Of a stretch of DNA of 64,000 nucleotides, positions 36,722-42,440 are shown in pieces (within the stretch, counting starts at the first letter, position 1; every line of letters begins with the position of its first letter). The notes below the pieces were generated by a model. The model was not told the origin of the DNA. It saw only the letters and a list, made by a program, of their open reading frames with translations, and made no database searches. A program made the translations under genes and the position numbers. The stretch covers positions 17,360,001 to 17,424,000 of the forward strand of contig OZ004608.1 of assembly GCA_963924565.1 (NCBI GenBank). The letters run 5' to 3'. The DNA is from Ascidiella aspersa (taxonomy: Eukaryota).

Positions 36722-39700
36722 TCAAGGTCTATCCATCTTTTCAAAAGCAGAAGGATATGGTAATGTTTTCTGAAGGTATAGATTTAGTCCCTTTATAGCC
36801 ATCACGGAGGAAAAACTAAAATAAACATAAATATAAGAATAAAAAATAAAATTTGAACATCCGCTGATATTACTTTAGTGGCTTAACTAAACCCAAGCCT
36901 ATGTAAAAAAAACGATGTTTCACTTTATAGAGCAGTATTTGTAAATTTTGGCAGGCCATTATTTAATCCTTGAATATTAAATTGATTATTCGCTCAATTC
37001 AATAGATAACAATTTATTGTTATTTTGTTATTATTAATATTTCTTGCATTATGGTTTTTAATAGATTAGATAGCGCAGGGGGTCGCAACCACTCATAAAA
37101 ACATTTATCTGATTACTGTTTTCAAGACTAGAATTGCCCTTAAAACGTTTTATACCTGTTGTAATCGATGACATCATTCAAACAATAAAATTTTGTTGGC
37201 TCTAAGGCTTTTAAAGCGGCCTCGTTTGCCTTGTAGTCATTTCCGATTGAGAAATACCGTTGATCACTTGAATACTAAAAATAAAACGTAATAATTTAAC
37301 TTATTTATTTCGTCCTATTTCGCTCTCGTAAAACAAAATCTACTAACTGTTTTTGCATATGTATTGCTTCCGGCGCTTTATAGTTCGGGGTTTAAATATT
37401 AATCTTATAAAAATTCATGAATTATAATGTTTACCAAATATTCTGTTTAAAGTACTTGTAAAAGTTGGCACTAGTAGAAGTAAAAACTTGAATAAGATTA
37501 AAAAATAAGTAGTTGTATTGTTATATTAGCGTCAAATTAACAACCTGTATTTCTTTCGTTGGTAGACCCTCGTACACCAGAAAAGAAAAGTACGAGAGTG
37601 GGACTTGGACATCGTCTGAACATCGAAACTTATGTGAAGAAGTGGCGTCGTAGAAGGTTTTCAGTTTTTCTTGCAATCGTGTCATGATCGAGCTATGGGC
37701 CAAAGAGGCGAAGTTATTAACCAGGGACGCTGGGAGCGGTTTTAGAAGGGGCACGAGCAAATTGTATTCCAATTATTTGATAGTTAATGTACGACTTCAG
37801 ACAATGTCATGTATTTTTTCTACAACGTGAGCAGGCGGGACAAAATGGTGAGAAGGGGTTTACGACTTACGAAGGTTAAAAGGTAGCGAACATCTAAACT
37901 TACTAAAGTCATTTTATAATCAACTGTCAAACATGTTGCTGCGGTAAATATTATTATTATTAAGGCAACAACTCAGACTCTCTTATTTTTTATATGAATA
38001 ATTAGTACGTCAGAACTGTAGAGTTTCTTACTATACTTTCACTTTTTTCTCTTTTTACATCGTTTAACGCAAAAACAAACACGCTGCCAACAAAGTGCAT
38101 CGAGTGCTCTTACCGGTTGATTAGGTGCGGAACATGCGCCATTTGTCGTCGAACGTCAAACTTCAAGTAAGTTTTGAACAAGTAGGCGACATAACGCACA
38201 GAATCAAAATATGTATTATCTAACCTTCAACAAAAAATATTTTATTCAGTTTTCATGTTGTGTCAAACATACGAGCCAAAAACAAGCATTAAACATAAAA
38301 AGTAGTACTTACAGACAGGCTGCATCTATTAACCACATCATATGTCTTACTGTTTTTTTGTATCCGATAATACTTCCTGTTTGAATTTTGCTTTATTAAT
38401 CAAGTCAAGGTGTGGAATTGGGTCCGACGAGTAAATCTTATAACCCATATCCATTGTGTAGAAATCAGCCAAAGTAATCTAAACAATATTAGTTTATCAC
38501 CATTGAAATTTATGGAGCTTTTTCAGAGAGATTTAACATCATGCTGAGGTGTTTGTTAGAATATAGGCAGTGTTGGGACTCAAGTTGTTCGCATCAGTTC
38601 GTTCAAGAATAAAAGCTGGAAAACCGTTTTTTAAAAGTAAAAAAACTTACTTCTGATCTTTACCCATTATTTAGCTTCTTATATTCATTCAAAACGCATT
38701 TAAAACGATTCTGCTGCAAACGACTTTTTCTAGACTAGATTTGCTTGATTACCATATTCCGCCTATAACCCTAAAACCTACACGAGTAGAAATACACAAC
38801 GAAGGACAAACCTGACAAAATGCTTAACGTATTTTAAATAAGGCTTTGAATATAATCACAATTTTAAGAATACTGGTACATAAAATAAATCATTTTTGTG
38901 AGTTTACACCTCGAAGAAAACTTCTAAAATTTTGTTTATAAGAAATCTGCAGATAAACCGCACGGGTAAACATATAAAACTATTCGCATTAAAGCATAAC
39001 AAATCGTAACTTTACGTACCGGAGCTCCCAAGATTATGTCGTCGTTGAAGTATAGAAACTCTTGGCTGAGTCCAGGAATCTTATGCAAATGAACCTCTAT
39101 CGCTGGTGAACTGAAAGTGGGCAGATGCGAAGCATTTCCAAATATCTCGGAGTGAAAGATCTATTTAAAAATGGTACATATAACTGTATAACGACAGCAA
39201 ACCCATTTGATATTACTAACCATCGATACAAGTACATCAAATTAGTGCGGATTACAAGGAAACTATTGGCCTACCCCTATCATTATTACACGGATTTTTT
39301 ATTAACACTTATCGTTAATCCTCGAACTTTTTAGGCTTGCGGTAAAATATCACATATATTCATAATTAAATAAAAATTTCTATTGTTGGCAGGTTAAGTG
39401 ATTTTTTAACCAGGCGAGCACACAATTTTCTTGAAATCGATTATTTTCCTATATAACAAAAAGTTTGGCGCCAAACTTTAGAATATCTCGAGGCACACAG
39501 TTTGAGTTTGCATTTCTTATTATCTAAAAGCTTTTGTACACCTCGGTAATGGAAAGCTTTTGATATTGCAAGACATCATTTTTGTACTGGGTGTTTGGCC
39601 TACAAGCTGACATGTTTTGTATTTTATATTAATTTCGATAAAACGTTTTTCTTACACTAAATGTGAGAGAATCCTATAAGCTACATAAATATCAATTTAA

Positions 39701-42440
39701 CTAACTATAATGCTATAGTACTGGCGTTTGGTATGTATTTATACAGCTTCATTTAAATCTGATTAAAAAGTGTAAGTTTTTGCTCTTTTTCCCACCATTT
39801 TGACTTTTGGGTTGCTTGTGTTCAACCAGCATGGAACCTGTCCGTTTGTGACAATATAAATGTTGCGGATCCAAGGGGCGTACATTTCGAGGGACCTCAA
39901 TGAGTATCTGTGTAGTGTAATGTATATACTTATTTAAATAATAACGCAGTTTTACACTTGAATAAATACGTTGTAGCCTATAGTTAAACTACCTTGTGTT
40001 AAACTTGATAAATTTAGGATCATAATAAAAAATCATTTGTTTTTCCACATTTGCTTAACCTGCCAAAGAGTGTTAACCTTAGTGAGCATTCCGACGGCGA
40101 TAATATATTAAGACATTAAAATACTTGCACACATGTTTTATAATAAAACTGACCTCAGGACTCCGTTGTCAAAAAACCTCTGGCCTCGTATGTCTATTCC
40201 GTTGTTTACTGATGATGTAAGAGTAATATTTATTGATCGTTGAAATTCCGGGTCGGAACCGTTTACCTGTGATCAAAGTGGATGCAGGGTTTGTTCGAAA
40301 AATGGTAAAATATCTATATCACTATTTTAAAATCACAAAAATATAAATAACGTATAGTTACGTGCTGAGTGTTATTTCCGTTTTTAAAGGCATTTTCCAT
40401 TATGTGGACAAAATAAAGAAAAATAAATAATTCTTTGCTCATGCGCACAGCGCTCAAATTTCGTCAGACAAAAACAAAAAAATCGGGGAATCCCTCATTG
40501 TGTAACATATAATCGCACACGTTTTAGCATTTTTGTAGCTGAAAAACTACTCATGATTAAAACCCAAAACAAAAAGAGAAAAATATATCTAAATAGAGTA
40601 TATAAATTTATCTTTACGTTCAAAGAAAGAAAAAAATTTGACGTCATCACAAAAATTGGAAGGGGTGATTTTTTTTCGTTGCCTTTAAAGCAATTATACA
40701 CCTACTTGCCAAACCCAATATTTTTACAACTGCTTTGATGAACGGTATAACAATAAATCCAAATACCTTTTATAAAATTCATTTTTTTAAATATACAGAA
40801 TTCGAACTACCTTGACATACATGTAGTATTTTTTTGTTTTTACGAGAATTGCCACTTGAGTGCTTTCTGTGAATGGGCCAAAACAATAATTAGTATATTC
40901 CAATTAGTATACTTCCCAGTAACATTTTTTAAGATAGCCTAAGACGCAACACGACCCTTTGTTTGGAATGATTTTACCGGAAAACCACAACATGATTATA
41001 ATAAAGGCTATTTTAACTTAATTATAAGAAGCGCAAAACTTAACACATTCGTTCCACTGTTTATAACATAGGGTGTAAAAAATTAATGCAAAGTTTAGTA
41101 GATGTAAGCTTTTGTTTTAGATTATTTATATTACAAACACATGGCGCATAAAAATTTGCAATTAGCTATTGTCGAAATTTTCTTTAAAACTGTTCAATCT
41201 GGCCAGCTGAACACTTACAACAGCAGGAGAGGCGTTTGTGGCACAATTGTGCGACAACAAAATGTCACGTCGAAATTTGCGCACATTTTAAAGATCTTTC
41301 AAAATTTTGCGGATGTTTTTTTTCCAGAATGTTTGCATTGCAAAATGTGCTTTAGAGTTAGAAGAGTCGAAGAAAGAATTGGTGAAAGAGTTGTAGGAAG
41401 AGTAAAAATCCGGTAAAGAGTCAGAGAAAGAGAAAAAAGGGGAAAAAAGAGAAAAATGGGGAAGAATAGTTTGATTAAGAGTTTAATGCCCACACGATCA
41501 AAAATTTGCGCGAATTTGTGCAAAAAGCTCGCATTACTGTAGCCGAAAATACGTACAATTATATATATTAGGTTGTTTAAGGTTTGATATATATAACAAT
41601 CGCACAAGGCGCAATGCCTACAGGGGAAGGCATGTAACAATTTTAAATTATACAATTAAGGTTCTTAAAACCTAATGGTAATTCTATACCTTTAAAGATA
41701 TTTTATTCTGAACAAATTTTTAAGTAACATTAGTATAAAGCAAAAGATTTAAAAAACAAAGTACACATTTCATTTTGATTGCGCCATGTGACTTATAAAC
41801 GCCAAAAGTAAACACCGTCATTTCGAGCTATATTTTATTATTGTTTATGTGCTGTATGTGTCACGTATCCTTTTGATTGACGTTTTGCCAATGCAAGACG
41901 AATAAACGCAATTTTGTTTGTGATTAGAGTGGGTTTTAGCCGCATATTCGCGAAATTGTTTGCACGAGGAACAACAAGGGTTTTTAAGAATAATTGTTTT
42001 ACAGAGTAATATTGTTATGTTCTTCTATTTAAAAGTTTTCCATGCATCCCAGCTAAAATCCTGATGTCCTAGTTTGCACTAGCCCGAAAAAAGCACTCTC
42101 CTACTCCTACACCAGCCCGAAACGCTCTAACAACGCTAACTTTATAGTAAATAAATATGATTAACATTTAACTTACCCACGTGTAAACTACGTCAATATC
42201 GTTATGGATTTCATGCGTTTTGATCTTCATTGCGCCAAATATTCTGCTCTTCATGTTTGGAAACTGCAAATAAAGAAACTTCTAATCTATTCAGACGTCA
42301 TTATAACTCAAATTTTAAACTAAATTTACCTTAAGAAACCTTTTATAGTTTCCATACTCTACGGAACCAATCCAGATGTTTAGTATTACAAGGACAATCA
42401 GCAAGGCAATTACACATCGTTTCCAACGCAGCATCGTCAT
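36722..42440 (-). CDS. Stealth-family hexose/HexNAc-1-phosphate transferase (minimal GNPTAB-like), type II membrane protein, 387 aa
   Basis: Ten phase-consistent exons: 42440-42330, 42263-42177, 40266-40154, 39907-39796, 39160-39020, 38478-38351, 38224-38114, 37692-37545, 37274-37156, 36815-36722 (1164 nt). N-terminal [21 protein letters not shown]1 [18 protein letters not shown]2 [53 protein letters not shown]3 [24 protein letters not shown]4 [15 protein letters not shown]. Confidence 0.92.

Follow-up and report, generated by a model that had tools for sequence, protein, structure and literature searches.

Our analysis of a 64,000-nucleotide window of the Ascidiella aspersa genome (GCA_963924565.1, contig OZ004608.1, positions 17,360,001 to 17,424,000) identified a genuine, expressed and spliced eukaryote-type gene encoding a Stealth protein, a type II protein of 387 amino acids that carries the conserved regions CR1 to CR4 in order and lacks the accessory modules of animal GNPTAB. 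Since 17 of 18 human active-site residues are identical, the protein most likely works as a UDP-GlcNAc phosphotransferase, and it is probably located in the secretory pathway, in the Golgi. Arguing from the sequence, we hold with moderate confidence that it is an active single-chain secretory enzyme of the eukaryotic GNPT branch, belonging to a divergent, compact subfamily of which Ciona also has a member, and that it would most likely act as an accessory to a canonical GNPTAB, adding GlcNAc-phosphodiester caps. The chemistry of such an enzyme is already known, so the system is not new in kind.

Gene structure and transcription

The gene occupies positions 36722..42440 of the window on the minus strand and comprises 10 exons, whose 1164 nt encode 387 amino acids and the stop codon; an in-frame stop codon lies immediately 5' of the ATG. 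The following features were assigned (corresponding human residues in brackets):

up to at least about 42516, minus strand: 5' UTR of exon 1, as suggested by the length of the transcript contig and the bin depth
42330..42440, minus strand: exon 1, coding part, residues 1-37, short basic tail and single membrane anchor (about residues 9-27)
42177..42263, minus strand: exon 2, residues 38-66, stem and first half of CR1, without a cysteine equivalent to human Cys70
40154..40266, minus strand: exon 3, residues 67-104, remainder of CR1, a short spacer replacing spacer-1, and the start of CR2 with R96 (R322)
39796..39907, minus strand: exon 4, residues 104-141, first part of CR2
39020..39160, minus strand: exon 5, residues 142-188, CR2 with E163 (E389) and the NDD motif at 180-182 (406-408)
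38351..38478, minus strand: exon 6 (43 codons), residues 189-231, end of CR2 and a linker replacing LNR, DMAP, spacer-2 and spacer-3
38114..38224, minus strand: exon 7, residues 231-268, beginning of CR3, including H261 (catalytic base H956) and H264 (H959)
37545..37692, minus strand: exon 8, residues 268-317, CR3 with R291 (R986) and Q297 (Q992), no EF-hand after it
37156..37274, minus strand: exon 9, residues 318-357, CLND motif of CR4 and N350 (N1151)
36722..36815, minus strand: exon 10, residues 357-387 and stop, CR4 helix, no second anchor; splice joint not among the matches listed

All nine introns have GT-AG ends. Mapping of spliced sequence from run X3 (same study as the best holder of this DNA; the kind of run is not on record) showed, among the matches listed, eight of the nine introns removed as modeled and no extra exon, and a single 879-nt contig from this run covers exons 1-7. 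The intron 6 joint has the correct length (126 nt), but its placement is shifted by 8 nt, at a near-repeat where the ends are non-canonical; the intron 9 joint (exon 9-10) was the one not among the matches listed. Raw RNA reads from another study (run X7, about 6% read) joined six of the nine introns with 1-4 reads per joint, and the DNA run X6 contained none of the eight joints of X3. The spliced transcripts lie on the gene's own strand.

It is very improbable that the locus is an artefact or foreign DNA, whether a bacterial gene, a contaminant or a mis-modeled GNPTAB fragment with unrecognized exons. The exon 9-10 joint and the low RNA read numbers, at which rare isoforms would escape, leave some room for this explanation; against it stand the nine introns, eight of them joined without extra sequence, the phylogenetic test described below, and the distance of the prokaryotic and metagenomic relatives of the Ciona homologue, which are only 36-47% identical to that protein. 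Neither intron 6 (126 nt) nor intron 8 (270 nt) could accommodate an LNR/DMAP or EF-hand region, and two ORFs in intron 2 gave no Pfam match. Hidden exons carrying extra modules were rejected on the basis of intron lengths and read joints: exons restoring LNR or DMAP, which by the preliminary description would have overturned its reading, were looked for in the spliced sequence and did not appear in introns 1-8. Its statement that nine spliceosomal introns exclude contamination is likewise upheld.

Domain architecture

Pfam matches were obtained in 6 of the 11 pieces that were searched. Single exons matched CR2 (E = 1.8e-16) and CR3 (2.6e-10), and the matches to CR1 (two exons) and CR4 were weak, below the gathering score, because introns split those motifs; exon matches and alignment together placed all four regions. 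The blocks are separated by only 20 (CR1-CR2), 29 (CR2-CR3) and 34 (CR3-CR4) amino acids. Exons 2-3-4, 5-6-7 and 8-9 are directly joined across these gaps, and spacer-1, the LNR repeats and DMAP, and the EF-hand bundle, respectively, are absent from them. Equally short spacers occur in 54 of the 282 Stealth rows that have four blocks. Hydropathy analysis revealed one hydrophobic segment (peak 2.8, residues 9-27) and never exceeded 0.99 after residue 40; no C-terminal anchor was found, as hydropathy stays at or below 0.74 over the last 60 residues and the stop codon falls 5 residues past the CR4 block. The type II core, the short connections and the missing LNR, DMAP, EF-hand and C-terminal transmembrane segment of the preliminary description were therefore all borne out.

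CR1-CR4 and the 17 pocket residues are shared with animal GNPTAB and with the S1-S3 core engineered from it (PDB 9bgg, 7s6n and 7s05). In contrast to GNPTAB, the Ascidiella protein has no spacer-1, LNR, DMAP, S1P-cleaved spacer, EF-hand bundle, Cys70 or C-terminal anchor. The S1-S3 construct (499 amino acids) retains the EF-hand. According to the available part of PMC5415318, it is about 21-fold more active and tags lysosomal enzymes well, and its hyperactivity extends to lysosomal as well as non-lysosomal glycoproteins.

Natural shortened Golgi GNPT homologues are found in Drosophila (PDB 7dxi) and Trichomonas vaginalis (TvGNPT). The fly enzyme has one LNR, an EF-hand, two anchors and a Phe in place of H959, whereas the Ascidiella protein lacks these modules and keeps the histidine (H264); fly GNPT transfers GlcNAc-1-phosphate but, according to PMC11418123, does not tag lysosomal hydrolases. 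TvGNPT, described in the accessible text of bioRxiv 2026.10.22.760878 as the single GNPT of an organism that makes M6P glycans, is a Golgi protein of 343 amino acids with one N-terminal anchor; it is reported with CR1-CR2 only, unlike the four regions present here.

Compact Stealth proteins with short spacers, mostly with an N-terminal anchor in the named rows, also occur in barnacles (Amphibalanus), bivalves (Ruditapes, Mercenaria) and amoebozoans (Cochliopodium, Thecamoeba), on branches separate from that of Ascidiella. The amoebozoan forms (357-441 amino acids) have the same architecture, whereas the barnacle and bivalve forms retain an EF-hand-sized and one LNR-sized insert, respectively, neither of which is present in Ascidiella. 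One barnacle model, of 342 amino acids, is shorter than the Ascidiella protein but lacks the greater part of CR3. Bacterial capsule Stealth proteins (SacB/XcbA/CpsY type) share the compact CR1-CR4 and most pocket residues, and differ in membrane anchor, spliceosomal introns, FNS instead of FSS, and tree position. Unlike an intronless gene of a polysaccharide operon, the Ascidiella gene has nine introns and animal-type surroundings. Compact forms had been called typical of bacteria, protists and fungi; bacterial and amoebozoan forms exist, but so do those of barnacles, bivalves and Ciona. Animal Stealth proteins are described, in the part of PMC1285062 available, as all bearing LNR and EF-hand modules.

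Catalytic pocket

We compared the protein with the 18-residue human pocket list given in the consulted section of PMC11418123. The only exception to identity is F931, which is Tyr. All five key residues (R322, D408, H956, R986 and N1151) are conserved, as are E389 and H959, which contact GlcNAc. The nucleotide-sugar pocket has its NDD motif as well as the catalytic His, Arg and Asn. The protein carries the FSS variant, which is found in 196/216 long GNPT rows vs 44/125 compact rows; FNS occurs in 67 of the latter. On these counts the motifs are GNPTAB-like, as had been proposed, but the pocket residues are nearly as well kept in bacterial-type rows and so do not determine which donor or acceptor is used. 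The human enzyme loses its activity when the EF-hand is mutated, and its dimer contacts are formed by the EF-hand and Cys70; both features are missing in Ascidiella.

Phylogeny and intron positions

The closest relative is Ciona intestinalis XP_078482003.1 (310 amino acids), the best match with 49% identity over 258 residues and sister to the Ascidiella protein at 100/97 in the best tree. Annotated as "exopolysaccharide phosphotransferase SCO6021-like", it likewise has an N-terminal anchor, short spacers and no LNR. It differs in that its model is without CR4 and may be truncated, and in keeping a cysteine at the human Cys70 position, six residues ahead of the Asp of CR1. No functional study of it was found, and a single-sequence fold gave a pLDDT of 39, too low to be used. 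Together with the barnacle, bivalve and amoebozoan compact forms, this sister protein shows that the Ascidiella enzyme is not narrowly lineage-specific, contrary to the earlier view.

A phylogeny and a comparison of intron positions had been put forward as checks in the preliminary description, and each gave a divided answer. In the best tree the Ascidiella protein falls outside the animal long forms, not nested with vertebrate or amphioxus GNPTAB, on an end branch of 0.88 (0.05-0.24 for the vertebrate and amphioxus rows). Grouping with six prokaryote-type sequences, rows picked after the tree was seen, was rejected (AU test, p=0.008), but a clade with chordate GNPTAB was not (p=0.136). A FastTree placement beside compact groups was lost in the careful tree, in which the neighbor is a 642 amino acid LNR-bearing protein (94/88, not starred). 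Barnacle compact forms cluster with long barnacle GNPTAB at 100/98, which offers a precedent for stripped accessory copies.

Four human splice positions are confirmed in print (c.1284+1, c.2715+1, c.3335+5 and c.571+4), and the comparison rests on c.1284+1 (after codon 428), the only one in the alignable region; this intron is absent in Ascidiella. The remaining human positions, as we presume them to be, are matched by none of the nine Ascidiella introns. Tunicate introns turn over fast.

These data bear on a rival reading, in which the gene would be the host's own fast-evolving GNPTAB, reduced to an S1-S3-like core and giving lysosomal hydrolases the M6P tag, or a remnant of it, with relaxed selectivity. 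We consider this reading somewhat unlikely, as the best tree has a log-likelihood 29.6 better than the tree constrained to a chordate GNPTAB clade and the confirmed human intron is missing. The p value of the constrained clade, the 51-52% core identity to human and amphioxus GNPTAB (36-47% to three prokaryote-type rows), the Cys retained in Ciona, and the precedents of S1-S3 and Trichomonas nevertheless speak for it. So does the lack of a long tunicate GNPTAB among the matches listed, although this is weak evidence, since the searches were word-limited or covered the best 120-150 rows. None of ten long proteins looked up was identified as a tunicate GNPTAB (five were named as other taxa, five carried no taxon). 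No new tunicate protein appeared in the best 120 of 1484 matches, from a search alignment with several exons misplaced; in the best 150 of 7451 of a representative search, with 30 proteins looked up, the Ciona protein was the only named tunicate. Exon 8 had no relative in metagenome contigs.

A decayed downstream paralogue

Partial copies of the gene were found downstream of it:

32808..32864, minus strand: copy of the 3' half of exon 4, 94% DNA identity over 66 nt
32543..32683, minus strand: copy of exon 5, 81% amino acid identity, 17 synonymous vs 9 non-synonymous codon differences
31859..31954, minus strand: copy of exon 6, 44% amino acid identity
25631..25767, minus strand: copy of exon 9, CINDA motif, internal 32-nt duplication

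Copies of exons 1-3, 7, 8 and 10 were not found within 23000-36700. The remnants suggest a tandem paralogue whose early divergence was mainly synonymous and was followed by decay, which fits gene-family turnover.

Proposed mechanism and acceptors

By comparison with the human enzyme, UDP-GlcNAc and a divalent metal would be bound at NDD 180-182 and N350, H261 would deprotonate the 6-OH of a mannose, and GlcNAc-1-phosphate would be transferred with release of UMP. No activation step should be needed, since there is no spacer-1, auto-inhibitory region or S1P-cleaved spacer. As LNR/DMAP and the gamma-binding region are missing, acceptors would be chosen by accessible glycan and Golgi position, not by protein surface. 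The likeliest role under our preferred reading would be to cap a broad range of secreted or surface glycoproteins with GlcNAc-phosphodiester, possibly including lysosomal enzymes.

Loss of the recognition modules had been taken to imply non-lysosomal acceptors. This does not follow: given the hyperactivity of S1-S3, the M6P glycans of Trichomonas and the fly enzyme that does not tag, architecture alone does not identify the acceptor. The preliminary description favored a specialized phosphoglycan builder. Such an enzyme would, like bacterial capsule Stealth enzymes, add or polymerize sugar-1-phosphate, perhaps taken from a different nucleotide sugar; its target would be Ser/Thr or one particular extracellular glycan, such as that of the tunic, mucus or egg coat. 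This appears decidedly unlikely. In its favor, the Ascidiella protein has the same architecture as the compact forms of bacteria and amoebozoans and sits on a long branch, polysaccharides with phosphodiester links are made by bacterial Stealth proteins (available part of PMC1285062), and phosphodiester glycans occur in non-vertebrates (PMC6994554, as far as its text was available). The FSS variant, the retained H959 contact and the rejected prokaryotic grouping argue against it, and the literature searched listed no paper that connects these enzymes or the M6P receptor with Ciona, ascidians, tunicates or the tunic.

Significance

Among those retrieved, the Ascidiella protein is the most stripped named animal protein with all four regions intact. 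It allows a GNPT-type core without the EF-hand dimer module to be tested directly, together with what shortened invertebrate GNPT homologues modify. If active on mannose glycans, it would be about 110 amino acids shorter than S1-S3, the construct with which therapeutic lysosomal enzymes are phosphorylated. A broader and more speculative proposal, which we rate as rather unlikely, is that canonical GNPTAB is accompanied in ascidians by a separate family of Stealth enzymes with rapid turnover, reduced to the core and unregulated, that build sugar-phosphodiesters on extracellular glycans (tunic, mucus, egg coat or defence proteins), with independent parallels in barnacles and bivalves. If this were true, chordates would have a phosphoglycosylation pathway not described before, and the enzyme would be a natural one that does without the EF-hand and is smaller than engineered S1-S3.

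The Stealth gene encodes a compact protein with a single anchor

Our analysis, with exon boundaries fixed by script, gave the following gene model:

36722-42440, minus strand: Stealth gene, ten exons

The exons, read from 42440 to 36722, encode 387 amino acids followed by a single terminal stop; all nine introns are GT-AG, and an in-frame stop lies upstream of the ATG. The protein has one hydrophobic segment (peak at residues 9-27), and its five N-glycosylation sequons are all C-terminal of this segment, an arrangement consistent with a type II protein whose catalytic domain is luminal. 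In Pfam comparisons of single exons, matches to Stealth conserved regions CR2 and CR3 exceeded the cut-offs and those to CR1 and CR4 were weak. The core blocks are separated by 20, 29 and 34 amino acids, with 5 amino acids beyond the last, leaving no place between or after them for the spacer-1, LNR/DMAP, EF-hand and second anchor of the animal GlcNAc-1-phosphotransferase GNPTAB. The compact architecture claimed in the preliminary description (387 amino acids, nine introns, one anchor and no recognition modules) is thus borne out by exon model and block gaps, and the protein departs from canonical GNPTAB in four architectural tests. All reconstructed animal Stealth proteins were said, in the available portion of an early paper, to carry LNR and EF-hand domains (PMC1285062); having neither, the present gene is an exception to that statement.

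Spliced sequences support introns 1-8

Four of the 11 listed sequencing runs were compared with positions 25200-44400. In contigs of X3, a run whose kind is not on record and which, coming from the same study as the best DNA run, is not independent, eight of the nine introns are spliced out at the modelled lengths, and a single 879-nt contig covers exons 1-7 together with what are presumably some 76 nt of 5' UTR. Raw RNA reads from a separate study (X7) show six introns removed, with 1-4 reads per intron, and most of them have the orientation that a minus-strand RNA would give. None of the eight splice joints is present in the DNA reads of X6. The intron 6 joint was positioned 8 nt off, at a near-repeat, and the intron 9 joint is not among the rows listed. 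Since introns 1-8 are joined as modelled, with no additional exons restoring the modules in X3 joints or X7 reads, the objection that such exons exist fails for these introns, rare isoforms aside. Set beside these spliced sequences, an artefact appears highly improbable.

The catalytic pocket is conserved

Sequence comparison with the human pocket residues listed in the accessible part of PMC11418123 showed that 17 of 18 are identical (human numbering: T80, W81, V82, R322, F323, F383, S385, I388, E389, N406, D407, D408, H956, H959, R986, Q992 and N1151), the sole substitution being F931 to Tyr. Residue 81 is printed as Tyr in that part of PMC11418123 and is Trp in the sequence of S1-S3, an engineered human core. 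The retained H959 is a GlcNAc contact that is Phe in the fly enzyme (PMC11418123, same part). Many pocket residues are also retained in bacterial-type rows, so they are evidence for an intact pocket and less so for specificity. Judged by sequence, the protein is a Stealth family member predicted to work like the GNPTAB core. The human dimer contacts, as described in the available text of PMC9388126, are the EF-hand and Cys70; equivalents of both are absent here, which argues for a monomer or a dimer of another kind.

Relatives of the Stealth protein

The closest match among 235 proteins was Ciona intestinalis XP_078482003.1 (310 amino acids, 49% over 258 amino acids), whose model lacks CR4; from this kinship we take the host to be an ascidian. 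A usable core was obtained from 341 of 413 sequences. FastTree (all 341) placed the window protein with that of Ciona at 0.966. IQ-TREE (70 hand-selected rows) did so at 100/97 and set the pair apart from the long animal forms, in a tree whose deep branches are poorly resolved. The AU test did not reject a union of the window protein with three vertebrate-type rows and amphioxus (p=0.136). Separately, a clade with six prokaryote-type rows, a group picked after the tree was viewed, was rejected (p=0.008). No long tunicate GNPTAB was identified among the matches listed; that the gene is the reduced, sole GNPTAB of its host is a less likely reading.

The human intron after codon 428 is given as c.1284+1 in the available part of PMC13300730. 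It has no counterpart among the nine Stealth gene introns. None of the nine coincides with what we take to be the remaining human GNPTAB intron positions.

Compact forms recur in barnacle, bivalve, Cochliopodium and Thecamoeba, and 54 of 282 four-block rows, mostly unnamed, are equally compact. The Cochliopodium and Thecamoeba proteins share the architecture of the window protein, whereas the bivalve proteins retain one LNR-sized insert and the barnacle proteins have an EF-hand-sized insert and cluster with long barnacle GNPTAB (100/98, covering four rows in IQ-TREE). The barnacle-type compact family comprises 16 proteins (P0012, P0146, P0160, P0178 and related unnamed rows of the homologue set), which cluster with three long barnacle-type GNPTABs at 0.999 in FastTree; judging by this tree, it is an independent expansion of stripped Stealth copies.

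A decayed paralogue and other features of the window

Downstream of the Stealth gene, one half of exon 4 and the exons 5, 6 and 9 recur as copies, that of exon 9 with a 32-nt duplication; a search of 23000-36700 found no counterpart of exons 1-3, 7, 8 and 10. The bins that contain the exon 4/5 and exon 9 copies have zero depth in X3 and depths of 0.37 and 0, respectively, in X7, and the paralogue reads as a pseudogene. Its exon 5 differs from the intact gene by 17 synonymous and 9 non-synonymous codons; the changes being mainly synonymous, it probably remained a working gene for a while. The half exon 4 (32799-32864) is 94% identical to intact 39787-39852, splice donor included, exon 5 is 80% identical, and exons 6 and 9 are much more diverged, which suggests local gene conversion or pieces differing in age. 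Other features are:

34100-35770, minus strand: remains of a decayed hAT-type transposase between intact gene and broken paralogue, with matches to the Spin-doc zinc finger (E 9e-10) and to DUF4371 (E 2e-6)
27368-27628, minus strand: small gene, 86-codon precursor
538-1980, plus strand: 480-codon open frame, Cys-rich start
21557-23180, plus strand: a pair of long open frames, with a weak LURAP match (E 0.018) in the first
24283-24528: near-perfect 82-nt tandem repeat (~2.7 copies) within a 52-nt inverted-repeat pair, probably a mobile-element remnant
48100-62244, minus strand: exons belonging to a multi-exon gene that lies upstream

The 86-codon precursor has a signal-like hydrophobic start, an Arg/Tyr-rich cationic middle and an acidic tail, presumably resembling ascidian host-defence peptide precursors; it had no Pfam match, and an Atlas search yielded only unnamed clusters with low recognition. 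No other bin of RNA run X7 comes near the depth of its own (~324 vs 1-3 at the Stealth exons). In the window copy the frame is interrupted by a stop at 27533-27535, but 949 of 949 X7 reads have a different letter at 27535. The 538-1980 frame contains a 129-nt repeat (~6.6 copies) that codes for Ser/Thr/Lys/Gly-rich units, with only a weak collagen match in Pfam, and its product may be secreted, as a structural or mucin-like protein. Positions 61897-62244 resemble what we take to be the F-BAR region of ARHGAP29/45-type proteins, a likeness to which Pfam and PDB searches lent no support.

Acceptors of the Stealth enzyme

The proposal that missing modules imply non-lysosomal acceptors (tunic, mucus, vitelline coat) divides the published cases, as far as the available portions of these sources go. 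The fly enzyme, which transfers GlcNAc-1-P and does not tag lysosomal hydrolases (PMC11418123), agrees with it. Against it stand human S1-S3, whose activity is ~21-fold higher and which phosphorylates glycoproteins whether lysosomal or not (PMC5415318), and the 343-amino-acid, single-anchor Golgi enzyme of Trichomonas, a cell with M6P glycans (bioRxiv 2026.10.22.760878). That the gene encodes a dedicated extracellular phosphoglycan enzyme is an unlikely reading. No paper on GNPT-type enzymes or an M6P receptor in Ciona, ascidians, tunicates or the tunic was among the matches listed from the open-licence literature.

Next to the observed structure, splicing, residue conservation and Ciona relationship, we infer localisation, activity, donor, acceptor and tissue. 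The most likely reading, held at even odds, is that the Stealth enzyme would act unregulated in the Golgi as a UDP-GlcNAc:mannose-6-OH GlcNAc-1-phosphotransferase, moving GlcNAc-1-phosphate from UDP-GlcNAc to the mannose 6-OH; it would choose its acceptors broadly, at the level of the glycan, and would serve the animal as an accessory enzyme.
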